From: a virus
Strand: one strand, 5' to 3'
DNA: 64,000 nt
IMG/VR virus record: IMGVR_UViG_3300042447_000691
Shown: positions 33,268 to 63,670 of the stretch, one piece after another
How the letters are laid out: each line of letters begins with the position of its first letter
How positions within the stretch are numbered: position 1 is the first letter of the stretch
The notes under the pieces: generated by a model
The model's database searches: none
What the model saw: only the letters and a program-made list of their open reading frames with translations
Told to the model about the DNA's origin: nothing
Translations under genes and position numbers: made by a program

Positions 33268-34629
33268 ATGGATCTAAAAAGAATTATTAGAAAGGTAATA
33301 AAAGAGGCTCACGAAAAGAGGCAAATTAACGAAGCCACATGGGTACCTAAAAATACTGGAAGTAAATATGGTATGAGACTTCACCCCGTACAGAAAGTTT
33401 ATAAACTTCATGCTGGTCAGGATTATCCTGAACCACAAGGTACTGCTATTATTGTAATTAAACCAGGTAAGGTATTAAGATCTGAATTTGGTAAAGCCAA
33501 TGGTAATTTTGTTGAAATTTTACATAATGATGGTTCGGTTACGATGTATTTACATCTATCTAAGAGAATGGTAAGTGCTGGTGACATTGTAAATAGTGGT
33601 AAAGTAATTGGGTTGGTTGGATCTACAGGTCTTTCTACGGGGCCACATCTACATTTTGTTTATAAAAAGGATGGTAAAATGATAAATCCTGAAACTTATG
33701 CTCCACAGGTATTTAGATTTAGTAATAGTTCGTCACCAGACGTTAGTGAGTTTGTTAAACCGGTTGCAAAAGGTAAAACAAAAGAATATATGGTGTATGC
33801 CATCTCAAGTGGAAAAGTGCATAACCCAACCGGTAATTATATTGGTAGTTTAGGTACATTAATATCAAAAAGAAATGGTGAACCGATATATGGATCACAA
33901 AGAAAACGAGATGGTAGAATATTTTTATTCACATTTGATAACAGTAATGATGTATTATACATTGAAATGTCTAATGAGGACTTTTTAAATTATGATGTTA
34001 AAAAACAAAGAATAGAAGGGACGTGGGAAAAATTAACGGAAACTTCTGTTGTTAGAGATTCTAAAAGTAAAAACCAAGAAAAATCTTCTGAAACAAAAAA
34101 TAAAGAAACTCAAAAATCAGGAGATTTAAAAGACGATAGACTTTCAGAACCAATTTTAAAGGCAATTAATGACTTAATAAAAAAAGGTGTTAACATTACA
34201 AAAAAAAATATAGATAAAGAATTTGAACAGGAAGGGTCAACAAGACCTGATTTGGGAAAAAATAAAATTGCAGAAAAGAAAATACTAGAACTTATAAATG
34301 ATTGTAATAAAAAATTTGGTATAAGTGGAGGGGTAGTCTCCGGATATAGAAGTTATGATGATCAAGTGAATAATTTTGCAAAAAAAGTTTTAAATAATAA
34401 AAGAACAATAGATAATGTTCAAGCATCAAACACATTACCTGGTTTTAGTCAACACCACACAGGAAAGGCGTTTGATATATATTCAACAGAAACTAGTTGG
34501 TGGGATGCGAAACCTAAGATTAAAAAATGGGTTGCGGATAACGCTAAAGATTACGGTTTTGAAATAACATATAAAACACAAGGACCATTAAGGGTTGCTG
34601 AACCTTGGCATTTAAATTATATAGGATGA
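33268..34629 (+). CDS. Dual peptidoglycan peptidase: M23 + M15B (VanY-like)
   Basis: M23 HAGQD...TMYLHL...STGPHLHF; C-terminal SGYRSY...PGFSQHHTGKAFD...AEPWH. Confidence 0.88.
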   Translation: MDLKRIIRKVIKEAHEKRQINEATWVPKNTGSKYGMRLHPVQKVYKLHAGQDYPEPQGTAIIVIKPGKVLRSEFGKANGNFVEILHNDGSVTMYLHLSKRMVSAGDIVNSGKVIGLVGSTGLSTGPHLHFVYKKDGKMINPETYAPQVFRFSNSSSPDVSEFVKPVAKGKTKEYMVYAISSGKVHNPTGNYIGSLGTLISKRNGEPIYGSQRKRDGRIFLFTFDNSNDVLYIEMSNEDFLNYDVKKQRIEGTWEKLTETSVVRDSKSKNQEKSSETKNKETQKSGDLKDDRLSEPILKAINDLIKKGVNITKKNIDKEFEQEGSTRPDLGKNKIAEKKILELINDCNKKFGISGGVVSGYRSYDDQVNNFAKKVLNNKRTIDNVQASNTLPGFSQHHTGKAFDIYSTETSWWDAKPKIKKWVADNAKDYGFEITYKTQGPLRVAEPWHLNYIG

Positions 34630-34997
34630 AAATAGATCATATCATAAGAAAAGTTTTAATTGAAGAATTCACAACTAAAGAATTTTTATATGAAGACATA
34701 TACGGATCAGTAGAAAGTGTTGATGAATTTTTAAACGAAGCAGAATACCAAGGAAGAAAAGTCCAACTTGGAAAAATAATGCAAGGAGACATTAAAAAGT
34801 CCAAAGTTTATGTTAAAAACGATAAAGGAAAGGTTGTTAAGGTAAATTTTGGTTTTGGTGGTAAATCGGCAAAAGGTAAAAGAATGGTTATTAAGAAAAA
34901 TAACCCTGAAAGAAGAAGGTCTTTTAGAGCAAGACATAATTGTGATAATCCAGGTCCAAGATGGAAACCTAGATATTGGGCATGTAGAACATGGTAA
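34626..34997 (+). CDS. Conserved phage hypothetical protein
   Basis: EAEYQGRKVQL...RRRSFRARHNCD...RYWACRTW motif, recalled from T4-like aquatic phages. Confidence 0.6.
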   Translation: MKIDHIIRKVLIEEFTTKEFLYEDIYGSVESVDEFLNEAEYQGRKVQLGKIMQGDIKKSKVYVKNDKGKVVKVNFGFGGKSAKGKRMVIKKNNPERRRSFRARHNCDNPGPRWKPRYWACRTW

Positions 34998-35020
34998 TAA
35001 AAAAAATAAAATAAAAAAAA

Positions 35021-35455
35021 ATGAACAGAAGTTACAGTAAAATCAGACATATTCAAGAATCTAACAGAAGACTTGAAGAAACATTATTAAACGAACAAAA
35101 TCCAGCATTAGCAGGACTTGCTGCTAGAGTTGGTAGTGTGATTGGTAATTTATTTAGAAAAAAAGAAAATGAAACCTCACCGGCACTTCAAGCGGCACAG
35201 GCAAGAGTAGAAGCAAAAACAGAACAATTAAGAAATTCACTTAGAGAGTTTCATGATGAGTTTGAAAAACTTTATAGAGATAGAGCAAAAGAAATTAGTG
35301 ACTCAATAAAAAAATTAGAAGCCGAAAAGGCACCAAACTTAGAAAAAGTAAAAGAACAAAGTACCACATTGAATACTGAATATGAAAGTCTTTTATCTAA
35401 AATAACCGATTTTGAAACTGAAATACAAACAATTTTAGGTAACTATAATAGTTAA
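35021..35455 (+). CDS. Hypothetical protein with MNRSYSKIRHIQE leader
   Basis: Same N-terminus as 42474..43319. Confidence 0.6.
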   Translation: MNRSYSKIRHIQESNRRLEETLLNEQNPALAGLAARVGSVIGNLFRKKENETSPALQAAQARVEAKTEQLRNSLREFHDEFEKLYRDRAKEISDSIKKLEAEKAPNLEKVKEQSTTLNTEYESLLSKITDFETEIQTILGNYNS

Positions 35456-35461
35456 GATAAT

Positions 35462-35761
35462 ATGAGTAAAATTATTATAACAGAAGACCAACTAAAAAAA
35501 GTTGTTAAATCACTTAAAGAAAGTGATGAGGAAGGGTCTTACATGGCAAAACAACAGTTGTTTACCATCGCAACATTGGCTTACAAAATGTGGGAAATGA
35601 TGGAAGAAGGAGACCAACTCGAAGATTGGATGGAAACAAAAATCGCTCAATCAGAACAATCTATCACTGCGGTAGTTAAGTCGTTTATGTACGATGAGTT
35701 TGAAGACGGTATTAAAGGAACCAATGGTTTGGATTTTGATGAATTAATCATTGGTAGATAA
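35462..35761 (+). CDS. Hypothetical protein with leader variant (MSKIIITEDQLKKVVKSLKE)
   Basis: Degenerate copy of the shared leader. Confidence 0.6.
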   Translation: MSKIIITEDQLKKVVKSLKESDEEGSYMAKQQLFTIATLAYKMWEMMEEGDQLEDWMETKIAQSEQSITAVVKSFMYDEFEDGIKGTNGLDFDELIIGR

Positions 35762-35836
35762 AAAAACAAAACATAAATAAACCCCCTTTCTTAGTTGACT
35801 GGGGGATTTTTATTTTATATAATTATTAAAAAAGTC

Positions 35837-36013
35837 ATGTACGTAATAGTTAAACAAATCAAAACGGAATCCAAAAAAAGATTACCAGTTATATTATTAA
35901 ACTCTGAAAGTGAAATTTGGGAATTTGATAGTATTGAAGACGCTGAAGAAATGAAAGAAATATTTCAAACAAACTCAGACTCAGGACACATTTACGAGGT
36001 TAAGAAGATATAA
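35837..36013 (+). CDS. Hypothetical protein
   Basis: Short ORF MYVIVKQIK. Confidence 0.45.
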   Translation: MYVIVKQIKTESKKRLPVILLNSESEIWEFDSIEDAEEMKEIFQTNSDSGHIYEVKKI

Positions 36014-36019
36014 TAATAT

Positions 36020-36091
36020 GGTTCCGTGGTGAAAGGGATATCACAGTAGATTTCTAATCTTCTATTCCTGGTTCGAGTCCAGGCGGGACTA
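36020..36091 (+). tRNA. tRNA-Arg(UCU)
   Basis: Cloverleaf; loop TT-TCT-AA; T-arm CCTGG-TTCGAGT-CCAGG. Confidence 0.85.
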
Positions 36092-36225
36092 CACCAAACA
36101 AAAACAATGGAAAACACCTTAGAACAATTACACCAAGAATTTATTAATTCAGAAGAATTTATAAAATATCTTAAAGAACTTGACGAATATTCAGAAAAAT
36201 ATGTATCTTTGTAAAAACAATACAT

Positions 36226-36525
36226 ATGAACAAAGAACTTGTCTCCCTATTTTTCTCAATGACTCACGAAGTGGAAGAACTACTTGAAGTATTCAATAAG
36301 AAACAATTATTAGATTTTTACATCAATGGGTGTGAGTTAAGACTTCGTATGGAAGGACGTTTGGAGAATTTTGAAAAGTTCAATAAAGAAACGGGAGTTG
36401 AGTTCAGCACTTTGATCTCAAACAAATTTCACTTGGCGAAACAACTTCACGTATTAAAAATGGCCTTAGAAAAACTTGGAGTTAAAGGATTAGAAGAAGA
36501 CCAATACATTATCTTTAACAATTAA
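36226..36525 (+). CDS. Hypothetical protein
   Basis: ORF after TATCTTTG. Confidence 0.55.
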   Translation: MNKELVSLFFSMTHEVEELLEVFNKKQLLDFYINGCELRLRMEGRLENFEKFNKETGVEFSTLISNKFHLAKQLHVLKMALEKLGVKGLEEDQYIIFNN

Positions 36526-36815
36526 TGAAATCATTCAAAGACATAGAATTTAAACCACATTCTTTTGGTGAAGGTGTACACGGACTATTATTTTTTCCTA
36601 ATGGTTATGGGGTGTCTGTTGTTAGGTATAAAAATCCAATAAGCAAAATTTATGGTTCATATACATCTAACGATAACGAATGGGAAGTTGCGGTGTTATA
36701 TGGTGATGAAAAAAAGTGGGAGATCACTTATAACACATACATAACGGACGATGTTATCGGTCACTTATCAGAAGGTGGTGTTGAATGGATAATTATGTTA
36801 GTTCAGGATCTATAA
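36525..36815 (+). CDS. Hypothetical protein
   Basis: FPNGYGVSVVR...WEVAVL phage-type motif. Confidence 0.6.
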   Translation: MKSFKDIEFKPHSFGEGVHGLLFFPNGYGVSVVRYKNPISKIYGSYTSNDNEWEVAVLYGDEKKWEITYNTYITDDVIGHLSEGGVEWIIMLVQDL

Positions 36816-36929
36816 ATTAAGATATTTATAAGTAACCTCTCAGGGATTTTGATATTTTTACCCTTTTGTCTAATACTCGGCCGTAAAAGCAATAAAGAAA
36901 AAATAGATCGGTAGTTGAGAACAACAAAG

Positions 36930-36991: not shown

Positions 36992-37022
36992 CTTTTTTTA
37001 GTCTTTGATGTATTTATTATGT

Positions 37023-37982
37023 ATGGGATTAGAGTTTAAACAAATATGGAAGACCTCAAGGACATTAGCGGACTTAGTCAAAGAAGAGTCTGGAGATAAA
37101 GTAATTACGAGAACTAAAATTAAATCAATTGCAACCTCTGACCATTTTGGTCAAGTCCTATTATCTGCGGCCACAACTTTATCTGATAAAATAAAAATCA
37201 TACAAACAACTTGGTTTATAATTAATAAACCGAATTACACGCCAGAAAAAATATATAAAATCATAAACGACTTCTATATTTTAGTGGTTGATTTTTATGT
37301 TGAACAAACAACAAAAACTGAAACGTGTGGTGAATGTGATAATGGGTATGTTGAATGTAATAGTTGTGACGGGGATGGTAAACAAGATTGTAGGTATTGT
37401 GATGGTGAAGGAACTCATGAGTGCGATACTTGCTATGGTGAAGGAACCCAAGACTGTAGGTATTGTAATGGTAAAGGAACTGAAACTGAAACAGAAGAAG
37501 ATGATGAAGGTGAAGAAGTTGAAGTTGAAGTGGAGTGCGTTCATTGTGATGGTGGAGGTAAGGAATCCTGTCGTGATTGTGGTGGAGAAGGAAATTTTGA
37601 ATGTGATACTTGTGACGGTGAAGGAACCGAAGGATGTGATCATTGTGGAAGTACAGGGTCCGAAGGATGTGGTGAATGTGGTGGAAGTGGAGACGTTGAA
37701 AGTTATGAATCATATTATAGTATTGAAAGAACCTTTATGGTTGTGAATGGAGATTCTATGCAGAAATACATAGACAAACCATTAACAAAAGATGTGTTTG
37801 ATGATATTGAAGGCGAAGATCCTGCCTTTGATTTTTATATGATATTAAAAAGACAAGATTATATGAGTGATAATACGGCAGAAGATGAAAGGGAGAACAA
37901 CGAAATGGAAGATGATTTTGTAATAGTACAAGATTTGATAAAACTTGAAGATTCAAATCTAAGAGTACCCGGACTTTCCTAA
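37023..37982 (+). CDS. Protein with ten DnaJ-type CxxCxGxG-like zinc-finger repeats
   Basis: CGECDNG, CNSCDGDG, CRYCDGEG, CDTCYGEG, CRYCNGKG, CVHCDGGG, CRDCGGEG, CDTCDGEG, CDHCGSTG, CGECGGSG; no J-domain. Confidence 0.75.
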   Translation: MGLEFKQIWKTSRTLADLVKEESGDKVITRTKIKSIATSDHFGQVLLSAATTLSDKIKIIQTTWFIINKPNYTPEKIYKIINDFYILVVDFYVEQTTKTETCGECDNGYVECNSCDGDGKQDCRYCDGEGTHECDTCYGEGTQDCRYCNGKGTETETEEDDEGEEVEVEVECVHCDGGGKESCRDCGGEGNFECDTCDGEGTEGCDHCGSTGSEGCGECGGSGDVESYESYYSIERTFMVVNGDSMQKYIDKPLTKDVFDDIEGEDPAFDFYMILKRQDYMSDNTAEDERENNEMEDDFVIVQDLIKLEDSNLRVPGLS

Positions 37983-38012
37983 CCATTAACATATTTATTA
38001 ATAAAAACAATA

Positions 38013-38510
38013 ATGAAAAGAATAATTAGACTTACAGAATCAGATTTAGCAAGAATTGTTAGACGTGTGATTAAAGAAAACGAAGAAGACTTTGACACAC
38101 AAAGTTTTTTTGATGCTCAGTTTATAATTTTAAAAGAGTTTTTAACAAATTTGGGTTATATTTACATGGATGGTGAAAAACCACCTTATTCTAAAAAAGG
38201 AAGATTAGGTGTTTTTGAAAAAATTTCACATACGGAATCCGGCGAAAATGAACCTGGAACAAGTGGGTTAAAAGATGACTATTTATTTAGGGTAAAAATA
38301 GAGTTGGATTATAATATTTACGGAACAAGAGAAAATAAGTCGTCTATTTCTATATCTAAGTTTACATATGGTGATTCTGATTGGAAAGTTTTAGTCAATT
38401 CAAATGTACCTTGGGTATTAGGTAAACCTAATTATACAAAAATATTACAAGAGTTCAAAAAAATGGGTGAAGAAGCGCCAGGACTTTATTGTGAATTTAA
38501 TAAATGTTAA
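38013..38510 (+). CDS. Leader-family protein ([22 protein letters not shown])
   Basis: Shared leader plus unique C-terminus. Confidence 0.7.
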
Positions 38511-38520
38511 TAAAAAAATA

Positions 38521-39279
38521 ATGAAAAGAATAATAAGACTAACAGAATCGGATTTAGCAAGAATTGTTAGACGTGTGATTAAAGAAAACGAATATGAAGA
38601 AGATGAATATGATGAAGACGACGACGACGACGAAGATTATAAAGCATTTATAGATTCATATAGTGATGAACCTATAAATACCCCTAAAACACGAATGGCC
38701 GATCCTAATGAACCGTACGATTCAATTGGAGGACATTCCGTAAACGATTTAAAAAGAGCGTTTAATAAGACGAAGAGGGAAGATGAAGAGTGGGGACAAA
38801 CAGACGCAGGTAAACATCAATCACAGGACTTAATTAATATGGCGATAGATATATTAGAAGACGAATACGGTTATGATGGGGATGAACTTAACGAAATGAA
38901 TGAGATGGATATTGTTGAATCTTTATATGAAGAGGGCGAAGACGATTTGGCATCACAAATAGAATACCTATTAGATGAAGAAGGTATTGGTGAAAGAAGT
39001 GGAGGTGAATTAGGTGAAGGTTTTGATGATTTTATTACCAAAAAAAGATTCAAAGACTACAACCCAAGAGAATTTAGAACAATTAAAAAAGATGATTACA
39101 AAAGAAATTTAAGACCAGGAATGAGAGACTTTGAAGGAACGGAGTTAATGGGTGCTGAAGAAGAACCATTTGACGACTATAAAGATCTAAGTATGTATAA
39201 CCCATATTATGGTACAAATGATGATGATTTTGATGATGATTTTGAAGAGGAAGACTTTGATGATGAAGAATTTATATAA
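38521..39279 (+). CDS. Leader-family, very acidic protein
   Basis: Identical leader; D/E-rich body. Confidence 0.7.
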
Positions 39280-39285
39280 TTAAAA

Positions 39286-41643
39286 ATGATAGTTAATTTA
39301 AAAGAAAGCCAGATAGATGGTTTAATTAAATTGGTTCTTGCGGAAGAAAGAACCAAAAAAGGTTTAATTGAGCAGTGGGAAAGGGCACCTGCGGGAAAAC
39401 CAAAAGATGCGTTAGGGTATTGGAAAATATTATTTACAAACCTTACCGCTGGTGGAATTGGTGTTAAATGGCAAGTACCTAACGATCCGGTAAAATCTAC
39501 TTTTATGTATTGGGGTGGTTGGATCATATGGAAAGACATAAAAAAGAATGGGGGTTATCCTGTGTCTTTTGGTACGGGAAAAGATGGTCTAACCTTTGCT
39601 TTTTACCCTAAAGGTAAATATGCCGGTCAGCCACTTAACAATATTGAATTGATGGCTTCTAAAAAAAATATACCGGTTTTTAAATTAGACAAGTACGCAA
39701 AAAAATCAACAAAAGAAGTTACCGATGAGTTTAAAAAACTATTAGGAAATAGTAAAATAAAAAATTTTGTTGGTAATATAGGTAAAGAATTATCCGCCGT
39801 TTGGTCAGATCTATATACTAAACTAAATCAATACAAACCTAGTACAGTAAAGTTAGTTAAATCGAATAGTGGAGACGCATATTTTTTAACCAATTATTTT
39901 GGAAGCACTCAACTTGGTTTTTACACGAATGGCGATATTAAATTATATGATGGAACTCGTTGGACAAGTATTGGTAAATGGGACTCATCAATGCAAAAAG
40001 ACGGTAAACTATCAGGTGGATGGTTAAGTCGAAATAACGGTGAAAAAGTTTCTTTGGGTCCTGCACTTAATGAACCAAATTTAATGCCAATCTCTTGGAT
40101 GTTAGCGTCTAGTTGGAATAAAAAATCTACAACAACAACAACAAAAAGTAAAAATTATCCATACGAGGAATTAAAAAATAATCCGACACCGGAATTTATT
40201 GCTAAAGTAATAAAAGAATCAAGAGGTACTGTTCAAGATAATGAGGCTTGGGCTGAGTCCGCATTTATGGCAATTAAAAATATGGCTATGTATGATAAAG
40301 TCGCTAAAGCTTTAGGTACCGACCCATATAAATTTGTTAAATCGTTTATTACCGTATCAATTAAGTATCACGTTCAGGCTATACAGGTATCATACTTACA
40401 ATTACTTAATGATGAAAAACCAATTACTGTAACTAAATTTTCCACACAATGTCCATTAACTTTTACTGAACAAAATCCTGGTGGTGGTAAAACAAATAAA
40501 AGTGGACAAGTACCTTACGCTCTTTGGAATACAAATAAAGATCCATATTTAAAGGTAGTGGGTGCCTTTAGTGAATATAAAGGAGTAGTGCCTGGAGATT
40601 TTGGATGGAAACTTAATAATAATATTTACCCATACCCTACTTTATATAGTAAATCATGTACGCTCGGAACAAATCTTAACGAGTCTAAGATTTACGAACA
40701 GGTAAATTTTGATAGATTCAATAAATCACCCCAACTGCAGACAATTGATATTCGCCAGGTGAATCCTTCGGCAAGAAAGGTTAGTATTAATACTAAAAAT
40801 CAAAAAAAGATGATTGAGTTTAATAATGCGTTGGTACAACAAAATAAATTAATACCACAATATTGTCAAAAACCATTAAGGAGGGAGAAACGAGTAGCAA
40901 GAGGTGGTAATGACCCTAAAATTATTGATGCGTATTTAAGTATGTATACCCTATGTAAGGATTTTGGAGGTTTATGGGTACGTGGAGCCAACACCGCAAA
41001 CTTTACATGTGGATGTAGAGATATGAATGCTATTGATTTAAATGTTGCGGTTGATGATGGTAGTGGATTCAAAAATCGTATGGGTCAAACAATATCACAA
41101 TCAGTAGATAAAACACAAACATCAAAAAATTGGTCGGACGCGGAAAACCAACAGTTGGCACTTAATGCACTTGCATTGGCATCGGCATTTATACCTGTTG
41201 TTGGACCTGCAATATCTGCAGGTATTAGTCTTGCAGGGGCTTATGGTCAATATAGACAAGGTAATAATAAAGCCGCGGCTATTGAATTATTTTTTGCCGT
41301 TTTACCGTTTATAGGGAAAATACCTGGTATGGCCAAAGTAAGTAAAACAATGGCTGGAAGTCTAAAGGTAAAATTAGTTAGAGGTGGTACTATGACATTG
41401 ACAGAATTTAACACAGTAAAACAAATAATTGCGTACGATACTTACATTTCCTCAAAAGTTGGACAATATTTAAAAAAACAAGCGATGAGTGACGTGTCAA
41501 AAACATTATTAACAACCGCAGTTAAAAAGGTTGAACAAAAGGTGGTTGGATTGGCCGGTACACCAACCTATGGAGATCTTAAAAAGAAAGCCACAGGAGA
41601 AACCTTGGCGGTAACTACAGGTGTTGAGGATAAAAACACATAA
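39286..41643 (+). CDS. Large hypothetical protein (leader variant), possibly virion-associated
   Basis: 785 aa; MIVNLKESQIDGLIKLVLAEE; hydrophobic Ala/Gly segment near the C-terminus. Confidence 0.65.
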   Translation: MIVNLKESQIDGLIKLVLAEERTKKGLIEQWERAPAGKPKDALGYWKILFTNLTAGGIGVKWQVPNDPVKSTFMYWGGWIIWKDIKKNGGYPVSFGTGKDGLTFAFYPKGKYAGQPLNNIELMASKKNIPVFKLDKYAKKSTKEVTDEFKKLLGNSKIKNFVGNIGKELSAVWSDLYTKLNQYKPSTVKLVKSNSGDAYFLTNYFGSTQLGFYTNGDIKLYDGTRWTSIGKWDSSMQKDGKLSGGWLSRNNGEKVSLGPALNEPNLMPISWMLASSWNKKSTTTTTKSKNYPYEELKNNPTPEFIAKVIKESRGTVQDNEAWAESAFMAIKNMAMYDKVAKALGTDPYKFVKSFITVSIKYHVQAIQVSYLQLLNDEKPITVTKFSTQCPLTFTEQNPGGGKTNKSGQVPYALWNTNKDPYLKVVGAFSEYKGVVPGDFGWKLNNNIYPYPTLYSKSCTLGTNLNESKIYEQVNFDRFNKSPQLQTIDIRQVNPSARKVSINTKNQKKMIEFNNALVQQNKLIPQYCQKPLRREKRVARGGNDPKIIDAYLSMYTLCKDFGGLWVRGANTANFTCGCRDMNAIDLNVAVDDGSGFKNRMGQTISQSVDKTQTSKNWSDAENQQLALNALALASAFIPVVGPAISAGISLAGAYGQYRQGNNKAAAIELFFAVLPFIGKIPGMAKVSKTMAGSLKVKLVRGGTMTLTEFNTVKQIIAYDTYISSKVGQYLKKQAMSDVSKTLLTTAVKKVEQKVVGLAGTPTYGDLKKKATGETLAVTTGVEDKNT

Positions 41644-41668
41644 ATAAAAAATTAAGATATTTATTAAA

Positions 41669-42079
41669 ATGAAAAAAATTATTAGACTAACAGAATCCGA
41701 TTTAGCAAGAATTGTTAAAATGGTTATTTTTGAAACGTCTATGACAAAAGAACAAGTTAAAAGTTCAATATCTAATTTTATTAGTTCTTGTGTTAAAAAT
41801 ATGAAAGAACTTGATAATATTATGAGAGCAAGTGGTTATAGTGCTATTGCGATATTTTTAGGTGTGTGTAGTTTTTTAACTGTTGAAATTCCTGGAATCG
41901 CATTGATGTTCGGAGCATCCGCAATTAATTTTGGTACACAAGCATATAAGGAAATAAGTGGAATATACACATCACTAAAAACAGAAGAAAAAAAATCACA
42001 ATTTAAAAATAAATGTAATAATGTTTTTACTTGTGTATCTAATAAAATAGAAAACCAAGGGTTGTTAGATTTGTTATAA
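41669..42079 (+). CDS. Leader-family protein with hydrophobic segment
   Basis: [22 protein letters not shown]. Confidence 0.7.
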   Translation: MKKIIRLTESDLARIVKMVIFETSMTKEQVKSSISNFISSCVKNMKELDNIMRASGYSAIAIFLGVCSFLTVEIPGIALMFGASAINFGTQAYKEISGIYTSLKTEEKKSQFKNKCNNVFTCVSNKIENQGLLDLL

Positions 42080-42099
42080 TAAAAAATAAAATAAATAAA

Positions 42100-42450
42100 A
42101 TGAAAAAAATTATTAGACTTACAGAATCCGATTTAGCAAGAATTGTTAGACGGGTTATTAGAGAAGAAGAAAATAAACTACCTTGTGATACTTGGGAAGG
42201 TGCGATAAAATTCATTAAAGATAATCCATTAGGTGTACAGGGGTTTAAATTTGAAAGATTTGTTGAGGGTATTAAAACCAACCCAATGGTTTTAAAACAC
42301 CCAACAATAAAAGGTGAGTTACAAATCGAAAAAGATAATACATGGAACTTATTCGATATCAAAGGAAAAAGTACCAACTCAGGTAAATGGTCATGCAAAT
42401 CAATGCCAGGTGGAGGAACTCGAATTAGTCTTGGTGTTGATTTAAAATAA
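42100..42450 (+). CDS. Leader-family protein
   Basis: [22 protein letters not shown]. Confidence 0.7.
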   Translation: MKKIIRLTESDLARIVRRVIREEENKLPCDTWEGAIKFIKDNPLGVQGFKFERFVEGIKTNPMVLKHPTIKGELQIEKDNTWNLFDIKGKSTNSGKWSCKSMPGGGTRISLGVDLK

Positions 42451-42473
42451 AAACACTTTTTAAATAAAAAAAA

Positions 42474-43319
42474 ATGAATAGAAGTTATAGTAAAATCAGA
42501 CACATTCAGGAAGCAAATCTATTAATAGAAAAAAGATTACTTGAATCTAAATCCGACAATTTAAAACCATTAATATCAGAACAAGATGTTAAACAAGGCG
42601 CTGCCGGTGATCCATACCAATATAAAAAAGAAGGTGGAAAGTATTTTTATGCTAAAAAGGCTGAAGGGACAAATGCAAAGTGGGTTGAACAAACAAAAGA
42701 CGAAGGTATTAAAGCTATTGCAACTAAAATATTTGGTGATCCTGCACCATCAAAAAATCAAACAAGCACTAAACCTGTAGATCCAAATATACCAACTAAA
42801 GAAAATACACCATTAACAACACCAGCACCGACTAAATCACCAACTAATACGAACACGACAACGAATACAACAATACCAACCAAAACACCAACGAATACGA
42901 ACACGACAACGAATACTAATACGAATACAACAACGAATACTAATACGAATACACCAACCACAAATAATCAACAATCTACCGTTCAGTGGGGAAATATACC
43001 AATAGTTGGGGGAACCTTTGCTGCTGATAAATGTAATGGGGGTAATACAATCAATGATCAACAAGTTAGAGGATTTTTAAGTGACGGTGGAGATAATTTT
43101 TGGTCTAAATCTACAATAGACACAAAAAACAAAACTTATTATTTTTATTATCAAGAACCAATAAAGAAAAATAGTTCATCAGGTAAAAAATATTGTAAAA
43201 TAACCGATATTAAAACATACGATTTAACGGGATATACAGACAAAAGAGACAATACTAAAGTCAATACTAAGTATTTTGGTTATCTTGTTACTTCTGTAGA
43301 AATACCCCAAACAACATAA
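42474..43319 (+). CDS. Protein with MNRSYSKIRHIQE leader and Thr/Asn-rich repeats
   Basis: Shares its N-terminus with 35021; TNTNTTT repeats. Confidence 0.65.
   Translation: MNRSYSKIRHIQEANLLIEKRLLESKSDNLKPLISEQDVKQGAAGDPYQYKKEGGKYFYAKKAEGTNAKWVEQTKDEGIKAIATKIFGDPAPSKNQTSTKPVDPNIPTKENTPLTTPAPTKSPTNTNTTTNTTIPTKTPTNTNTTTNTNTNTTTNTNTNTPTTNNQQSTVQWGNIPIVGGTFAADKCNGGNTINDQQVRGFLSDGGDNFWSKSTIDTKNKTYYFYYQEPIKKNSSSGKKYCKITDIKTYDLTGYTDKRDNTKVNTKYFGYLVTSVEIPQTT
42835..42965 (+). repeat. Imperfect ACGAATAC-type tandem repeats (TNTNTT)
   Basis: Visible low-complexity repeat array. Confidence 0.7.
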
Positions 43320-46420: not shown

Positions 46421-46505
46421 CAAAAAAGATTGATCCGTTATCTGTTGTGAAACACGTAACGGATTTTTTTGTATATTGATATATTTATATATAAAATAAA
46501 ATATT

Positions 46506-46775
46506 ATGAATAGATTAACAGAAAGAGATTTGTCAAGAATTGTTAGACAAGTTATTAAAGAAGACAAAGAAGATAAGAAAAAAACTATGAATGACATACC
46601 TGATAGTTTCTTTAAAAGTTTTTTATCAAAAACTAGTAGCATAATGACAAGCGAGGAGTTTTCTGATATTGAATCAATTTTAGGAAAAAGAGTTGGATCA
46701 AATGGTGAAGGTATGGGTGATGTTTTTGAAAAAATATTTATGGAAGCAAGAACAAGAAGAAGAAAAAACGATTAA
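46506..46775 (+). CDS. Leader-family protein
   Basis: MNRLTERDLSRIVRQVIKE. Confidence 0.65.
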   Translation: MNRLTERDLSRIVRQVIKEDKEDKKKTMNDIPDSFFKSFLSKTSSIMTSEEFSDIESILGKRVGSNGEGMGDVFEKIFMEARTRRRKND

Positions 46776-46776
46776 T

Positions 46777-47220
46777 ATGAAAAAAATAATAAGACTTACA
46801 GAATCAGATTTAACAAGGATAGTAAAAAAGGCGATTAACGAATCCAAATCACTAACTAAAAAACAATTGGATCAGATGGTTAAAGATAGTCTAATCACCC
46901 CAAGAGATAGTGAAATCTTAAAACTATATTATATTGATAATATGAGTTTTGATGATATAGCTAATAAGTTTGATAGAACCGTATCAAGTACTAAACAACT
47001 AATTAAAAAGTTATATAATGATATTTCAGATGTTGATGGGTTAAAAAATAAAAGACAAAGTAAAGATGACTCACAAAAAGAAAACCATATAAATAAAGTT
47101 AAAAAAGAAATGAAAAGGGTTAAATTTTATCTTGATAATGGTTATTTAACTAAAAATGAAATTATGTCTTTATTTAAAGAAGTTTTAAATGGTGAAGAAA
47201 AATTAACAACATTAAGATAA
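46777..47220 (+). CDS. Leader-family protein with sigma-70 region-4-like HTH
   Basis: Leader followed by ITPRDSEILKLYYIDNMSFDDIANKFDRTVSSTKQ. Confidence 0.65.
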   Translation: MKKIIRLTESDLTRIVKKAINESKSLTKKQLDQMVKDSLITPRDSEILKLYYIDNMSFDDIANKFDRTVSSTKQLIKKLYNDISDVDGLKNKRQSKDDSQKENHINKVKKEMKRVKFYLDNGYLTKNEIMSLFKEVLNGEEKLTTLR

Positions 47221-47235
47221 ATTTTTAAATAAAAC

Positions 47236-47264
47236 TTGACACTTTTGAAAAGAGTGAATATTTA
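47236..47264 (+). promoter_or_regulatory. Putative phage-sigma promoter (TTGACA-N17-TATTTA)
   Basis: A near-identical element recurs at 47588-47617 (N18). Confidence 0.55.
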
Positions 47265-47280
47265 TAATTAAAATAATATT

Positions 47281-47580
47281 ATGAGAAAAACTATAAAATT
47301 AACGGAAGGTGATTTATCACGTATTGTTAGACGAGTTATTAAAGAAGATAAAGAAGAAGATGAAATGGAAGGTATGGGTATGTCCATTACAGTAAAAGAT
47401 ATATTTGAGGCGGTTATAGATGCTCTTCACGATCTTGGTACGTATGATGATGCATCTATGGGTGAAAAGGCAATGAATTTGGCTAAAATGATTATGAGTA
47501 ACATGCAAGATGACTTGGCTTACGTTACTGAGAATTATGAGGATCAACTTTATGATATTCTTGGTGATGAAAATTATTAA
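47281..47580 (+). CDS. Leader-family protein
   Basis: [22 protein letters not shown]. Confidence 0.7.
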   Translation: MRKTIKLTEGDLSRIVRRVIKEDKEEDEMEGMGMSITVKDIFEAVIDALHDLGTYDDASMGEKAMNLAKMIMSNMQDDLAYVTENYEDQLYDILGDENY

Positions 47581-47772: not shown

Positions 47773-47810
47773 GTTCTTTGACATATTGGTAAAAAAAAGT
47801 TTAAAAAAGA

Positions 47811-47842
47811 TTTGGTAGATCAAAATAGATTACATATCTTTG
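47811..47842 (+). promoter_or_regulatory. Bacteroidota-type promoter
   Basis: TTTG-N20-TATCTTTG. Confidence 0.75.
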
Positions 47843-47987
47843 TAAAACAAATAAGGAAAAAAGGTTCTTTGAAATATTAAAAATATTGTGGTTGTAAGAA
47901 ACGGGAAACTCGTAAAGTGCATTAACCTGTTGACTCAAGATGGTGAAACGAGAGTTTGAGTCAACTACTAAACTACAAATGGTATAT

Positions 47988-48375: not shown

Positions 48376-48395
48376 CAAAAAAAGTTTGAAAAAGA

Positions 48396-48427
48396 TTTGG
48401 CAGATTGAAATAGATTACATATCTTTG
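48396..48427 (+). promoter_or_regulatory. Bacteroidota-type promoter
   Basis: TTTG-N20-TATCTTTG, nearly identical to 47811-47842. Confidence 0.75.
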
Positions 48428-48447
48428 TAGAACAAAAATAAAGAACT

Positions 48448-49927: not shown

Positions 49928-49966
49928 CACTTGACATTATTAAATTAATGTCTTATTATTATACAA

Positions 49967-50039
49967 AACCGGGTAGCTCAGCTGGTAGAGCAATCCTTTT
50001 TAAACAGGACGTGTCATTGGTTCAATCCCTTTCCCGGTT
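49967..50039 (+). pseudogene. Degenerate tRNA (Lys-like)
   Basis: Good D-arm, 8-nt anticodon loop TTTTAAAC, mismatched T-stem. Confidence 0.5.
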
Positions 50040-50064
50040 TTTTTATTTATAAAATTAAAATATT

Positions 50065-53900: not shown

Positions 53901-54725
53901 ATGTTATTAAAAGTAGGATCTACAGGAGAAGATGTAAAAAAACTCCAAACAAAATTAGGATTAACCGCTGATGGTTCTTTTGGACCTAAAACTGAAACGG
54001 TGGTAAAAGAATGGCAAACTAAAAACGGATTAACCGCTGATGGTATTGTTGGTGACGGTACTTGGTCTAAAATGTTCGGGACAACTCAAGTAGTAAAAGA
54101 AGATGTTGTGATTACACCGGTAACAGGATTGAATATTGAAAAACTAAAAGGTCACATTCCTGATGTTGTTATCGCACAGATTCCTGAAACCGCAAAAAAA
54201 TTTAATATCACAACTAACTTGAGACTTGCTCACTTCTTATCACAATGCGGTCACGAGTCAGGAGGTTTTAAGGCGGTATCAGAAAATTTAAATTATTCTG
54301 CCGACGGATTAAAAAGAACGTTTGGTAAATACTTTCCTGGTAACTTGGCTGAATCATACGCAAAACAACCTGAAAAGATCGCATCAAGAGTCTATGCTGA
54401 CCGTATGAGTAACGGAAACGAAGCGTCAAAAGAAGGATATAAATTTAGAGGTAGAGGATACATCCAATTAACAGGTAAAGGAAACTACACCAGTTTTACA
54501 AAATTTATCGGTGAAGATTGTGTTGCGAACCCTGACTTAGTTGCAACTAAATACCCATTGGCATCTGCGGCATTTTTCTTTGACTCAAACAAACTTTGGT
54601 CAATATGTGATAAAGGAGCTGATGATGCTACGGTTACTGCGGTAACAAAAAGAGTAAATGGAGGAACAATAGGTCTTGCGGATAGAATTAAACACTTCAA
54701 AGAGTATTATAACTTATTAAAATAA
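53901..54725 (+). CDS. Endolysin: peptidoglycan-binding domain + GH19 catalytic domain
   Basis: DVKKLQTKLGLTADGSFGPKT...ADGIVGDGTW; AHFLSQCGHESG...ENLNY...FRGRGYIQLTG...VTKRVNGG. Confidence 0.92.
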   Translation: MLLKVGSTGEDVKKLQTKLGLTADGSFGPKTETVVKEWQTKNGLTADGIVGDGTWSKMFGTTQVVKEDVVITPVTGLNIEKLKGHIPDVVIAQIPETAKKFNITTNLRLAHFLSQCGHESGGFKAVSENLNYSADGLKRTFGKYFPGNLAESYAKQPEKIASRVYADRMSNGNEASKEGYKFRGRGYIQLTGKGNYTSFTKFIGEDCVANPDLVATKYPLASAAFFFDSNKLWSICDKGADDATVTAVTKRVNGGTIGLADRIKHFKEYYNLLK

Positions 54726-57005: not shown

Positions 57006-57011
57006 TTTAGA

Positions 57012-57584: not shown

Positions 57585-57650
57585 GAGATAATATTTTTGA
57601 TTTATGATGATACAAATATACAAATTTATTTTTAATTCATATTTATTAAT

Positions 57651-58307: not shown

Positions 58308-58310
58308 TTG

Positions 58311-58342: not shown

Positions 58343-58356
58343 GTAAAAAATAAATT

Positions 58357-59583: not shown

Positions 59584-59585
59584 TT

Positions 59586-59834: not shown

Positions 59835-60094
59835 AGAAAGTATTTTTGGCGATTTTAATGGGTGTTATGGTAACATCTTGTACGGAAAACTCAAGAGTGA
59901 AGAGTTTTGGTGGAGAAGGAACAATCAACCTACCAAAAGGTCGTAAATTAGTGACCGTTACTTGGAAAGAGACTCAGGTTTGGTATTTAACAAGACCAAT
60001 GGATTCAAGCGATGTGGCACAGACATATCAATTCCACGAAGAATCATCTTGGGGTGTAATTGAAGGAACTTATAACATTGTAGAGACTAAATAA
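59831..60094 (+). CDS. Small lipoprotein
   Basis: MKKVFLAILMGVMVTSC. Confidence 0.65.
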   Translation: MKKVFLAILMGVMVTSCTENSRVKSFGGEGTINLPKGRKLVTVTWKETQVWYLTRPMDSSDVAQTYQFHEESSWGVIEGTYNIVETK

Positions 60095-60095
60095 T

Positions 60096-60353
60096 ATGAC
60101 AGAAAGAGAATTAATACTTTTAGGGTTTAAAAGTGAGGAAATGAGGGAACACGATGAAGACGAGTCTTATTACTACGTTCTTGATATCGTTGACGGATTA
60201 ACCTTTATTACGACATCCAATGAGGAGATAAAGGAAGACAATTGGTATGTTGATTTTTTCAATACTGATCCACTTGTTAGATTTCACGAATTCGGAGAAG
60301 TTCAAGGACTGATAAACCAACTAACAAAAGCAATAGTAAAAAATGGAAAATAA
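60096..60353 (+). CDS. Hypothetical acidic protein
   Basis: Coupled ORF. Confidence 0.55.
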   Translation: MTERELILLGFKSEEMREHDEDESYYYVLDIVDGLTFITTSNEEIKEDNWYVDFFNTDPLVRFHEFGEVQGLINQLTKAIVKNGK

Positions 60354-60519
60354 AAGATTATTATACAATAGTTTGTCAAACCAACATAGATTAATTACTA
60401 ATCAAATTGGTGATATAAAGGCAAAAAACTTTGAACTAACTGAGGAAGACAAGAAAGAAATCCAAAAGTTAGAAACAAGAATGATTGAGATAACGAACCA
60501 ACTTAAAAGTTTGTTTTAA
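60343..60519 (+). CDS. Small coiled-coil protein (58 aa)
   Basis: Not in the ORF track; coupled ORF. Confidence 0.45.
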   Translation: MENKRLLYNSLSNQHRLITNQIGDIKAKNFELTEEDKKEIQKLETRMIEITNQLKSLF

Positions 60520-60520
60520 G

Positions 60521-61045
60521 ATGAGAAGTATACCAACACACGATCCACAGACCGGAGAACTTAATCCGTATTACGAAGAACTAACAGGTGAGAAAAATCC
60601 ATTATCAAAAGATGTAGAAAATGAAAGTTTTGATATTCCAAGATTTGTTGGTAGAAAATTTAGGTATAATGGAAAATTAATAAAAACCGATGTAAATTAT
60701 CTATTAGAAGACGATAAGGGTGTTGTTGTCGCATCAACATCCACAAAGGAAGGGATTAACGGTTTATCCAAACAAAACTGTGATAAGATATTTGGGGTTA
60801 TTGATGTTGTATATAAACAAGTTAGAAACGGATTTGATGGAGTTATAGATTCATTCACTGAAGCATTTGCTAAAGAATGTATCAACAAAGCAATGGAGTT
60901 ATATCAACCAACGGAAATTGAAGTTGAGATTGAGATGGAATGTTTGGATCCTAATTGTGATGGTATAAACAAGAAAGGTGTTTGTATACCTGGTGATAAA
61001 CCAAAATTAGATGAGAATGGATGTTTAATATTAAAAAAACTATAA
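60521..61045 (+). CDS. Hypothetical protein
   Basis: 174-aa ORF. Confidence 0.55.
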   Translation: MRSIPTHDPQTGELNPYYEELTGEKNPLSKDVENESFDIPRFVGRKFRYNGKLIKTDVNYLLEDDKGVVVASTSTKEGINGLSKQNCDKIFGVIDVVYKQVRNGFDGVIDSFTEAFAKECINKAMELYQPTEIEVEIEMECLDPNCDGINKKGVCIPGDKPKLDENGCLILKKL

Positions 61046-61046
61046 A

Positions 61047-61298
61047 ATGGAAAATAGAAGTACACACTACGGAGACGTATCAAACTGGATTGAAAAGATA
61101 ATTGATTCTTGTGAAACAATAGAACAAACATTTACTGCTAAAAAATTGATTAGTAATTTTGCAAAACAATTAAGAACTAAATCTCCAGATAAATACTGGA
61201 ACAGTTATCAATACACAGTTATTGACCCACTTAATGATTTGGTAAGAATTAAACGACAATCATTCATAAATAAGATTGAGGAACAATGGAAGAAGTAA
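61047..61298 (+). CDS. Hypothetical protein
   Basis: Coupled ORF. Confidence 0.5.
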   Translation: MENRSTHYGDVSNWIEKIIDSCETIEQTFTAKKLISNFAKQLRTKSPDKYWNSYQYTVIDPLNDLVRIKRQSFINKIEEQWKK

Positions 61299-61603
61299 AA
61301 TATCCAATAGGTGGTTTTGCACCTGGTGACTATATGTGTAAATGCGTAACCTGTAAAGAACAATTTCACGGAGATAAAAGGTCCGTTCAGTGTGAACCTT
61401 GTGCTATTGAAATGGTTAGAACTAAAATAGTTGAAAGTGAGGAAGGTGGATTTGAAATTGAACGTGATTATTTACAGGGATTTATTGATCAGTTCGGAGA
61501 TGGACCATTAGGTGAACTGGATCCAAATGAATGGACGGCACCTGATTTTTTGAGATGGTTAAAACTTAACAAATATAAAATTATAAAAGAAAAGAAAATA
61601 TGA
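61286..61603 (+). CDS. Small zinc-finger protein
   Basis: CKCVTC...CEPC. Confidence 0.55.
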   Translation: MEEVKYPIGGFAPGDYMCKCVTCKEQFHGDKRSVQCEPCAIEMVRTKIVESEEGGFEIERDYLQGFIDQFGDGPLGELDPNEWTAPDFLRWLKLNKYKIIKEKKI

Positions 61604-61788
61604 ACAACAACCCATTTGATCCAAATATGTTTAAAAATTTGGAAAACGTAATGAAAGGTTTTCAACAACCACAAAACAATAAAGGATTTTTTAATTTTAA
61701 TAAGATTAAAAAATATTTAATAACATTTATTGTTTCAATATTTGTGTCAGGATTTGCGTTAGGATTGGCAATTGGATTATTGTTTTAA
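61600..61788 (+). CDS. Small membrane protein
   Basis: C-terminal TM. Confidence 0.5.
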   Translation: MNNNPFDPNMFKNLENVMKGFQQPQNNKGFFNFNKIKKYLITFIVSIFVSGFALGLAIGLLF

Positions 61789-61791
61789 ACG

Positions 61792-62040
61792 ATGTTAGAT
61801 AATATAGTAGAATATTACCAAGACGAGGAGATCTTAAAGGCTGATGGGTTTGATGATGCGGTTATTGGTATTGAAAATGGTACTATGAGACTAATATATT
61901 CTGTACGAATGTGTATTGAAATATTGGTATTGGATGGTATGGATATGGTTGATGCTATAGAACATTTTGATTATAATGTTAGAGGGTCGTATGTGGGCGA
62001 AAAAACACCAATATGGTGCGATGATATGTTTGAAATTTAA
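61792..62040 (+). CDS. Conserved phage hypothetical protein
   Basis: ADGFDDAVIG...DAIEHFDYNVRGSYVGEKTPI motif. Confidence 0.65.
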   Translation: MLDNIVEYYQDEEILKADGFDDAVIGIENGTMRLIYSVRMCIEILVLDGMDMVDAIEHFDYNVRGSYVGEKTPIWCDDMFEI

Positions 62041-62041
62041 T

Positions 62042-62185
62042 ATGGATTCTTTTATACTTAATAAAAAAACTGATATGATAAAAAAATTAAACAGGTGGTT
62101 TGAACTCAACTGGGGTTGGTTCTTCATCAACGGAAGGAAACAAGAACAATGGAATGAATACTTAAAAAACAAATATAAAAAATGA
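62042..62185 (+). CDS. Small hypothetical protein
   Basis: Short Trp-rich ORF. Confidence 0.4.
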   Translation: MDSFILNKKTDMIKKLNRWFELNWGWFFINGRKQEQWNEYLKNKYKK

Positions 62186-62328
62186 AAACAATAGAAGTAA
62201 ATTTAGGAATTGGAATGAATATGTTATTCCCCGAAACAGTAAAGATCGTTATTGAAGACGATACAGATGATGAAACAACTAAAAAACCAAGTAAGGTTAA
62301 ACCGGAAATAGAAATAGAAAAGGAGTAG
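62182..62328 (+). CDS. Small hypothetical protein (48 aa)
   Basis: Not in the ORF track; coupled ORF. Confidence 0.4.
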   Translation: MKTIEVNLGIGMNMLFPETVKIVIEDDTDDETTKKPSKVKPEIEIEKE

Positions 62329-62356
62329 GGGTTTACCCCCATTTTAACTAAAATCA

Positions 62357-62388
62357 TTTGTAAAAACCAAAAATCCTCATTATATTTG
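62357..62388 (+). promoter_or_regulatory. Bacteroidota-type promoter
   Basis: TTTG-N20-TATATTTG. Confidence 0.7.
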
Positions 62389-62602
62389 TTCTATAATTAA
62401 AAACAAAATAAAATGAGAAAAAACACGGATTGGAAGGAATTTATTCCACAAGAAACTAAAGATGAATGTACTGATTCATTAAAGCTAAACCTTAAAGAAG
62501 TAGAAGAAAGATTGTATTGTTGGAAGGATATATGAATTTAGTTAAAAATATAAAATAATTGGTTTTTTTTTTTGATGATATATTTATTATTAAATTTGTA
62601 TT

Positions 62603-63193
62603 ATGAAAAAAATTATTAGATTAACAGAATCAGATCTAACAAGAATTGTTAGACGAACACTAAACGAGATGGAAGATTTTACAAAAGATATTGCAAAAGA
62701 TTTATATTCTAAATTACCAAGAGAAAACTTTACAACTGAAGATTTTATTGAATATATGAAAGATAAAAAAGCTCCAATGTCAGTAATCACAGATGTATTG
62801 GAACATTTAAAAAAAATGGGATTTCCTTTTAGTAAAGTAATTGAAAAAAGTAAAGAAAATTTTAAAAATAATAGAGACAAAAAAATGACAAAATCAAAAA
62901 ATAAAAAAATGGTAACAAAAGAAGATTTAAATAATTATTTAATAGAGTGTGAATGTGATATTTTTATGGATGGGCCATTTATTTATAATAATGAAGAATG
63001 GGAAATTTTTGGTAAGATGTTTATTAAAAGAATTGAAGAAAAATACGATATTAAAGTAAAGTTTAATGAAGATTGGTATGAAAATATATGGAACACAATA
63101 CCGGAGAGTATAACTGATGATGTTGTAGATCTTGGATTGGAGGCGTTGGCTGATTGGATTAATAAATATGATATTGAATGTGATTTAAATTAA
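62603..63193 (+). CDS. Leader-family protein
   Basis: [22 protein letters not shown]. Confidence 0.7.
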   Translation: MKKIIRLTESDLTRIVRRTLNEMEDFTKDIAKDLYSKLPRENFTTEDFIEYMKDKKAPMSVITDVLEHLKKMGFPFSKVIEKSKENFKNNRDKKMTKSKNKKMVTKEDLNNYLIECECDIFMDGPFIYNNEEWEIFGKMFIKRIEEKYDIKVKFNEDWYENIWNTIPESITDDVVDLGLEALADWINKYDIECDLN

Positions 63194-63289
63194 AAAATAA
63201 TATAAGTGTTAAAATTTTATGGTTAAATACCAAATTTATTAAAATTACTTGTTTTTTTTTTGATGATATATTTATAATAAAATTAAATT

Positions 63290-63670
63290 ATGAAAAAAAT
63301 TATTAGATTAACAGAATCAGATCTAACAAGAATTGTTAGACGAACACTAAATGAAATGGAGGATAAAAATTGGGATGATCACAAAGAAGAAAACGATTTT
63401 AGTTATTTTGATACCGATATGTATAATGGATTAGATGACGAAGAGTGGGGTGAAACTGATGGAGGTGGAGGTGGAGAAGAACTACAAGATTTGATAAAAG
63501 ATGCGAAAGAATTTTTGGAAAATGAATGTGGGTATGATTTAGATGATATAAATTTAATGAGCGTTGATGATATTGTAGATACAATATTTGATGAAGGAAA
63601 TATTGTGTTAGCTCAAAAAATTGATAACTTATTGGACTTTGATGATTTTAATTTTTTTGGAAATGGTTAG
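63290..63670 (+). CDS. Leader-family acidic protein
   Basis: Identical leader; the body resembles the middle of 38521..39279 (QDLI..A.E.LE.E.GYD.D..N.M..DIV..LY.EG...LA..I..LLD). Confidence 0.7.
   Translation: MKKIIRLTESDLTRIVRRTLNEMEDKNWDDHKEENDFSYFDTDMYNGLDDEEWGETDGGGGGEELQDLIKDAKEFLENECGYDLDDINLMSVDDIVDTIFDEGNIVLAQKIDNLLDFDDFNFFGNG

Follow-up and report, generated by a model that had tools for sequence, protein, structure and literature searches.

Unrelated proteins of uncultured T4-like jumbo phages share a nearly invariant N-terminal leader: a candidate capsid-targeting propeptide

The window and its leader genes

The stretch of viral DNA analysed here (64,000 nucleotides, in the following called the window) corresponds to bases 45059-109014 of the 109-kb IMG/VR virus record IMGVR_UViG_3300042447_000691 and carries nine genes whose products start with nearly the same 22 residues, the long leader, before they continue into mostly unrelated bodies. 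The GC content is ~31%. The record is 37% complete according to CheckV and does not contain the head module of the virus; 18 tRNA genes are located in arrays at 43.6-50 kb of the window. The consensus of the long leader is MK[KR][IV][IV]RLTESDLxRIV[RK]RVIxE, and the genes that carry it are listed in Table 1 together with those that carry other leaders.

A first-pass annotation, made from the letters and their open reading frames (ORFs), had named nine ORFs with near-identical leaders and had proposed a leader profile as a check. All nine do begin with the leader, and in a six-frame scan of the 109-kb record the profile found each of them with E 1e-12 to 1e-17. Two extra copies in the same E range are at genome positions 8589 and 41701, outside the window on its upstream side, giving a total of 11, after which the next-best match is the gene at 33268 with E 5e-4 and the rest is noise. 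The same nine copies were recovered by a DNA repeat finder at 62-92% DNA identity. That the bodies are mostly unrelated could be confirmed as well: the 11 bodies fall into ten BLASTP clusters, and only 38521 and 63290 share an (acidic) body.

The annotation had also stated that most leader genes follow the motif ATATTTAT. Six of the nine long-leader genes in the window have it within 45 nt upstream, at 4-17 nt before the start codon and often after a T-run, and for 46777 a copy lies 35 nt upstream within the preceding ORF, whereas 38521 and 42100, each closely behind another leader gene, are without it. In the whole record the motif shows a strand bias (35 copies on the plus and 14 on the minus strand), and 27 of the 35 plus-strand copies are within 50 nt of an ORF start. 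It stands directly ahead of the gp25-like and gp6-like baseplate genes and of a 1,624-aa tail-fibre gene, and in the relative G001, which has 57 of 92 ORFs in common with our record (median 56% identity), ahead of the protease, the terminase and a sheath-like gene. Copies also precede an HNH gene, a histidine-kinase gene and the tRNA arrays. We regard ATATTTAT as a candidate promoter of the type used for structural genes, which might be active late. A 271-aa ORF at 8398-9213 of the window looks by eye like a full-length sigma-70-family sigma factor and could read this motif.

Table 1. Genes with long, short, loose or type-2 leaders and the promoter-like motif in the window (HTH, helix-turn-helix; LRR, leucine-rich repeat; AF2, AlphaFold2).
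Position	Strand	Feature	Evidence and remarks
9386..9763	-	Loose leader, 125 aa	Core motif; no ATATTTAT upstream
19320..20702	+	Loose leader, 460 aa, weak LRR C-terminus	Core motif
33268..34629	+	Short leader (MDLKRIIRKVIKE), M23 and VanY cell-wall peptidase	PF01551 E 1.6e-26, PF02557 E 1e-22; ATATTTAT at 33256
34626..34997	+	Short leader (MKIDHIIRKVLIE), 123 aa	N-terminal core motif; no Pfam family
35021..35455	+	Type-2 leader (MNRSYSKIRHIQE..LE..LLNE), coiled-coil-like body	Pfam gave nothing beyond weak coiled-coil noise
37991..37998	+	ATATTTAT promoter-like motif	Seven copies are listed ahead of leader genes, the further six with starts at 33256, 41657, 46481, 47258, 62580 and 63268
38013..38510	+	Long-leader cargo, 165 aa	Profile E 3e-17; ATATTTAT 14 nt upstream; no Pfam family
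38521..39279	+	Long-leader cargo, 252 aa, very acidic body, net charge -55	Body related to 63290; no own promoter motif; closely after 38013
39286..41643	+	Loose leader, 785 aa, hydrophobic Gly/Ala-rich C-terminal segments; within leader-gene block 38013-43319	Core motif
41669..42079	+	Long-leader cargo, 136 aa, hydrophobic Gly/Ala-rich segment	Leader profile; ATATTTAT at 41657
42100..42450	+	Long-leader cargo, 116 aa, beta-rich body	Leader profile; orthologues; AF2 model
42474..43319	+	Type-2 leader gene, 281 aa, Thr/Asn/Pro-rich linker	Recurrence of leader
46506..46775	+	Long-leader cargo, 89 aa; leader three residues shorter (MNRLTERDL...)	Profile E 2.5e-12; ATATTTAT at 46481
46777..47220	+	Long-leader cargo, 147 aa, sigma-70 region-4-like HTH body	PF04545 E 5.8e-6, 26.2 bits vs cut-off 24.1
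47281..47580	+	Long-leader cargo, 99 aa, acidic helical body; widely conserved	93 orthologues, 51-92% identity
57651..58307	+	Loose leader, 218 aa	Core motif; ATATTTAT at 57639
62603..63193	+	Long-leader cargo, 196 aa	Leader profile; T-run and ATATTTAT at 62580
63290..63670	+	Long-leader cargo, 126 aa, acidic	Leader profile; leader and upstream DNA 92% identical to 62603 copy

Conservation and structure of the long leader

A logo was compiled from 181 leaders in the standard register. L7, E9 and E22 are invariant (Glu22 in 181 of 181), and T8, D11, L12, R14, I15, V16 and R18 are nearly so. Position 20 is Ile or Leu in 171 of the 181 leaders and is taken by Ile, Leu or Val only, never by Ser, Ala or Gly, and position 21 is free (K 78, N 44, R 22, S 15, M 6 and others including A and T). 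Past E22 the conservation breaks off abruptly. Besides the terminal I/L-x-E a second candidate site, L-T-E, is present at positions 7-9. At the DNA level the picture is a different one: L7 is encoded by TTA (97), CTT (40) and CTA (39), R14 by AGA (91) and CGT (45), R18 by CGA (62), AGA (48) and CGT (30) and S10 by TCA, TCT, TCG and AGT. As synonymous codons vary freely at invariant residues, selection acts on the leader peptide and not on the DNA.

Among the orthologues of 42100 the leader does not vary except for a few conservative substitutions and at position 21, with the body going down to 43-57% identity, and in the 47281 family the leader is followed by an indel-rich acidic linker and then by a conserved body. 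AF2 models of these two different cargo proteins both show the leader as a low-confidence helix apart from the body. For 42100 we obtained a coil at residues 1-8, a helix at 9-24 with a predicted local distance difference test (pLDDT) score of 55-64 and a body with pLDDT 80-89, and for 47281 likewise a coil at residues 1-8, a helix at 9-22, disorder at 23-37 and a helical body (mean pLDDT of the model 59, too low for a fold search). The leader would probably be built, as part of the capsid-targeting reading given below, from a short extended start, MKKIIRLTE, and a basic amphipathic helix, SDLxRIVRRVIxE. Foldseek found no PDB structure that matches the 42100 model at E <= 0.001, and the leader profile found only chance matches in the PDB (best E 0.5).

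Distribution of the tag

A pattern scan of IMG/VR identified at least 597 stretches with the tag, with 551 confirmed among the matches listed. From these we kept a set of 78 IMG/VR loci, to which our own record and one complete relative were added. The set contains 245 tag matches, 232 of them at a Met start and therefore at the extreme N-terminus, and 194 unique proteins of 65-502 aa (median 146). Their bodies fall into 127 unrelated clusters including 94 singletons, and ~30% of the bodies are strongly acidic. Five near-complete relatives of 273-304 kb have 7-16 long-leader genes each. When the profile was run against 1.84 billion representative proteins, 7,343 clusters (50% identity) were found at E <= 0.001 and 560 at E <= 1e-10.

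The tag is restricted to phages. In ~185,000 prokaryote genomes (one per species) there is one match, on a 3.3-kb contig binned with a Bacteroidetes metagenome-assembled genome, and this single match is weak evidence that the phage group probably infects Bacteroidota. Cultured phages are without the tag, as tblastn searches of 50,697 phage records with a leader protein and with the leader alone (the latter up to E 10) gave no match. No paper with the motif letters was found in a full-text literature search.

Head machinery and candidate cleavage sites

Each of the 10 large records with the leader (133-304 kb) encodes one prohead protease of the gp21 type (Peptidase_S77; E 1e-23 to 1e-28). A gp23-type capsid protein (Pfam Gp23, E ~1e-64) is present in the five near-complete relatives checked, and an acidic scaffold-like gene was seen in G001 and in a further relative, G002. 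The order of the head module in G001 is terminase, portal, two small ORFs, protease, acidic scaffold and capsid protein, with the protease gene at 135771-136496 and the gene of the gp22-like scaffold at 136865-138262. On its flanks are two unknown proteins that have short leaders, one of them with an additional internal long leader behind a Lys-rich stretch. The capsid protein gene of G001 is directly followed by one (140247-141389) for a 381-aa protein with a signal-peptide-like N-terminus.

Five of the eight [IL]xE sites of the capsid protein lie in its first 60 residues. The sites of this propeptide (LLE6, VIKE23, LKE44, LYE51 and LINE60) are kept in three genomes; in an alignment to T4 gp23 the mature N-terminus of T4 falls at about residue 45, and the sequence turns variable right after LINE60. 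The protease itself has ILVE/ILIE and V/IIKE at its N-terminus. The last four residues of the leader (VIKE/VINE) thus match sites in proteins that are cut according to the T4 precedent.

Bodies that are exposed to a protease with [IL]xE specificity should avoid this motif, a test that could have failed. With one representative for each of the 127 body clusters, the ratio of observed to expected sites was 0.88 for [IL]xE (95% confidence interval (CI) 0.75-1.00), 1.28 for [IL]xD and 1.21 for the reverse motif E-x-[IL]. In 221 ORFs of comparable length without a leader, taken from the same two genomes, the ratios for [IL]xE and [IL]xD were 1.19 and 1.21, and E-x-[IL] occurred 528 times (raw count) compared to 541 times for [IL]xE. 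The difference between bodies and controls gave a Fisher p = 1.5e-6 for [IL]xE vs [IL]xD and p = 0.006 for [IL]xE vs E-x-[IL], and the depletion holds without the acidic bodies and with the first 40 residues trimmed. A replicate with 101 independent proteins from the large library resulted in 0.90, 1.05 and 1.15 for [IL]xE, [IL]xD and E-x-[IL], respectively, with a ratio of [IL]xE to E-x-[IL] of 0.78 (CI 0.64-0.94).

Many matches from the large library have two or three copies of the leader. In four such proteins (P0151, P0009, P0021 and P0030) the sequence ...[L/I]-x-E-SDLxRIVxxVIxE comes after an N-terminal leader with its cargo and leads into a second cargo, for which G001 has a separate leader gene of its own, at 110153 or 13668. 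The internal copies are without MKKIIR and retain a hydrophobic-x-Glu (LNE, LYE, INE, LTE or ISE) before the SDL helix. From their arrangement these proteins look like cleavable polyproteins, even if an uncleaved docking helix would tolerate internal copies too. A 432-aa protein encoded in G001 shortly downstream of the capsid gene (141671-142966) begins with a short leader (MLNDIIKKILRE), continues with ~290 Lys-rich residues and has a full leader inside, ahead of a 120-aa domain; it is a candidate for a head-internal polyprotein.

Interpretation as a probable T4-like targeting system

The internal proteins of T4 carry N-terminal propeptides of 10-19 residues that direct them into the core of the prohead. 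The propeptides are cleaved off by gp21, which cuts after Glu in L/I-x-E (PMC9026906). In T-even phages they are highly diverse defence proteins having only the targeting sequence in common (PMC3012670). IPII and IPIII of T4 start with MKTYQEFIAE|A, and IPI, with a propeptide of 19 residues, starts with MKTFKEF...ITE|A. Our genes show several parallels: as in IPI, IPII, IPIII and Alt a short N-terminal peptide ending in L/I-x-E is found on unrelated small proteins, the cargo set is variable, and among the relatives there are a gp21-type protease, a gp23-type capsid protein and, in G001 and G002, an acidic scaffold-like gene. The first part of the leader, MKKIIRLTE, resembles MKTYQEFIAE in starting with MK and ending with hydrophobic-x-Glu, a likeness of design only. 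Even the location is comparable, since in T4 (NC_000866, 65.4-73.9 kb) ipII and ipIII are next to the lysozyme gene e and ipI is on the other side of the tRNA array, and in the window the leader blocks 38013-43319 and 46506-47580 flank the tRNA arrays and an endolysin-like gene starts at 53901.

The best reading, to which we assign a probability of roughly 0.6, is therefore that the long leader acts as a propeptide for capsid targeting, as in the internal proteins of T4, and that the genes represent a very large new form of the T4 system. An injected payload with T4-type targeting had already been suggested in the first-pass annotation, and every indirect test that was run (protease and capsid protein in relatives, the [IL]-x-E end, the sites in the capsid propeptide, the sharing of ATATTTAT with structural genes and the depletion of [IL]xE in the bodies) fits this idea, whereas several of the looser leaders and most of the effector functions proposed along with it found no support. 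According to our model the leader would dock the cargo onto the scaffolding core of a T4-type prohead late in infection, and the gp21-type (Peptidase_S77) protease would cut after Glu22 (I/L-x-E) and possibly also after Glu9 (L-T-E). The cut would free the cargo inside the head, and in the next infection it would leave together with the DNA. All of these steps, from docking and cutting to packaging and ejection, are inferred, and so is any role as effector. We propose that the need to fit dozens of different cargo proteins of a genome to a single docking site keeps the tag frozen, with free turnover of the cargo set.

The differences to T4 are also substantial. The tag has 22 residues with two candidate sites (E9 and E22) compared to 10 residues in IPII and IPIII and 19 in IPI. 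Whereas the T4 targeting sequence tolerates many substitutions (PMC9026906), the present tag hardly varies among thousands of proteins. Each genome has 7-16 long-leader genes, in addition to short and type-2 leaders, instead of 3-4 in T4, and internal leader copies occur in natural polyproteins. Another point of comparison are the processed head and ejection proteins of the giant phages phiKZ, 201phi2-1 and SPN3US, with jumbo heads that are loaded with many proteins, some of them cut into several pieces, and a diverged gp21-like protease that cuts after Glu in a three-residue motif (PMC9026906, PMC5694885, PMC10052503). In contrast to our leader this motif is S/A-x-E and not I/L-x-E, the propeptides there are not one shared near-identical leader, and the capsid protein of our phages differs from the phiKZ lineage in matching Pfam Gp23 (~1e-64).

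Several points weigh against a targeting function. Most leader genes are located outside the head module, and the tag exceeds the T4 targeting sequence in length and, by far, in conservation and has no detectable sequence similarity to MKTYQEFIAE or MKTFKEF...ITE. As our own record is without the head module, the link to the protease rests on the relatives, and none of the 50,697 phage records provided a cultured relative with the tag. The depletion of [IL]xE is modest, and the small short-leader class (24 clusters) shows none. Some cargo proteins (41669, 39286, P0152 and P0170) have hydrophobic, membrane-like segments, and because ATATTTAT also precedes non-structural genes and tRNA arrays the late timing is a supposition.

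Alternative explanations

An uncleaved helix for docking or oligomerisation, with which the proteins would keep their N-terminus and which would tie many small variable domains to a common hub outside the prohead core (e.g. capsid surface, baseplate or fibres, or a late intracellular complex), is an unlikely alternative. The leader is amphipathic, its hydrophobic stripe (L12, I15, V16, V19 and I20) suits helix-helix docking, its conservation is far above the need of T4 targeting, internal copies are compatible with such a role, and leader genes adjoin gp25-like baseplate genes in 11 of 78 loci as well as at genome position 8589 of our record. Such a helix leaves unexplained, on the other hand, why an invariant Glu22 stands beside a free position 21 and why conservation ends there so abruptly, and it accounts neither for the VIKE/LINE sites in the capsid propeptide nor for the orientation-specific depletion of [IL]xE in the bodies nor for the disordered, indel-rich linker behind the leader. 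It is less probable still that the leader is a functional effector module of a large late-protein family unrelated to packaging, for example a basic helix with affinity for nucleic acid, for a host protein or for the membrane. Its arginine-rich sequence (RIVRRVIKE), the sigma-70 region-4 HTH in one body and the membrane-like segments in several others would be in line with this, but the peptide of 22 residues has no fold of its own and no significant PDB relative, and a single binding task is hard to reconcile with 127 unrelated body clusters and a share of ~30% strongly acidic bodies. Such a module would also leave unexplained why the leader is so strictly N-terminal and why it goes together with phages that have an S77 protease. 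Compared to targeting to the capsid, both helix readings account less well for the boundary at Glu22, for the sites in the capsid propeptide and for the depletion of the motif.

Two further explanations have very little probability. One conserved leader on many variable 'cores' is the design of ribosomally synthesized and post-translationally modified peptides (RiPPs), whose precursors also combine a conserved N-terminal leader with hypervariable downstream sequence in many copies per genome, and the leader might accordingly be a recognition sequence for a modifying enzyme (RiPP-like or linked to a radical S-adenosylmethionine (SAM) enzyme) and no sorting signal. Radical SAM proteins (PF04055) are absent from five of five near-complete leader-bearing genomes, with the control being positive in 14 of 14 genomes; no neighbour family is present in more than 13 of the 78 leader loci, where the commonest neighbours include baseplate and head-module genes, and the bodies are folded proteins of 65-500 aa, unlike the short core peptides of RiPPs. 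Least probable of all is that the conserved unit is DNA or RNA, such as a recombination cassette, a translation-initiation element or a regulatory RNA site, with the peptide as a by-product. Promoter, leader and T-run do form a repeated cassette, and from the 92% DNA identity between the copies of 62603 and 63290 it follows that recombination between leaders probably shuffles cargo. As the main cause, a nucleic acid unit is ruled out by the many synonymous codons at invariant residues, and other copies are only 62-72% identical in DNA while the peptide is nearly identical.

Returning to the capsid-targeting propeptide, a wider form of this reading, for which we see slightly less than even odds, is that one frozen 22-residue tag with two sites serves as a universal loading address in one clade of these uncultured jumbo phages, where it works at the N-terminus and, within polyproteins, as a joint that can be cleaved, and marks thousands of unrelated unannotated families as cargo delivered by the capsid. 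As a bolder extension, the released invariant 13-mer SDLxRIVRRVIxE might have a role of its own inside the head. If the tag is a loading address, no other catalogue of candidate injected phage proteins (anti-defence and takeover factors) definable from sequence alone would come near it in size, and with a simple sequence search thousands of 'dark' phage proteins could be recognised as delivered by the virion and acting in the first seconds of infection. IPI of T4 is a precedent for an injected protein that blocks a host restriction enzyme. The tag would further be a compact natural packaging signal for this phage group and an example of many-to-one docking that freezes a peptide while the cargo turns over. 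The depletion of [IL]xE could be reused on other phages as a sequence-only test of protease exposure.

Cargo proteins and other leader types

Wall peptidases, a sigma-like domain, a possible RNase and a phosphoesterase had been proposed as effectors. Only the M23 and VanY peptidase (33268) and the sigma-70 region-4 HTH (46777) pass the Pfam cut-off; DHH (phosphoesterase) stays below the threshold and the RNase is without any support. Searches with Pfam and PHROGs using the leader proteins and the ten largest cargo clusters gave almost no matches, and none of these ten clusters has a Pfam family at or above the cut-off.

A second leader type had been noticed at 35021 and 42474 and proved to be real, since MNRSYSKIRHIQE... 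is also N-terminal in proteins of four other loci and of G001. The set of looser leaders stands in part. The long-leader profile finds among their N-termini only that of 33268, and this one is marginal, whereas the short core pattern I-[RK]-x-[IV]-[IL]-x-E is matched by 9386(-), 19320, 33268, 34626, 39286 and 57651; 24538, 28691 and 35462 match neither profile nor core. This short core is strongly specific for the N-terminus, with 16 N-terminal and no internal matches in our record and 26 N-terminal matches in G001 compared to ~1 expected. A separate cluster of about ten genes in G001 (42-56 kb, e.g. 54202, 54642, 55073 and 55533) encodes proteins starting with MKELIRHI[IL]KEE, a short-leader family that resembles the second half of the long leader.

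Further observations in the window

Directly upstream of the first long-leader gene, a 325-aa protein (37005-37982) with six tandem CxxCxGxG-type units, corresponding to a 33-nt DNA repeat family (D2), resembles the zinc-finger region of DnaJ. Just past the tRNA arrays ARAGORN called a tRNA of undetermined identity with the four-base anticodon 'ttaa' (49966-50041), which could be a suppressor tRNA, a frameshift tRNA or a miscall. A direct repeat of 60 nt (47792-47851 and 48377-48436, 92% identical) is found on either side of a tRNA sub-array.

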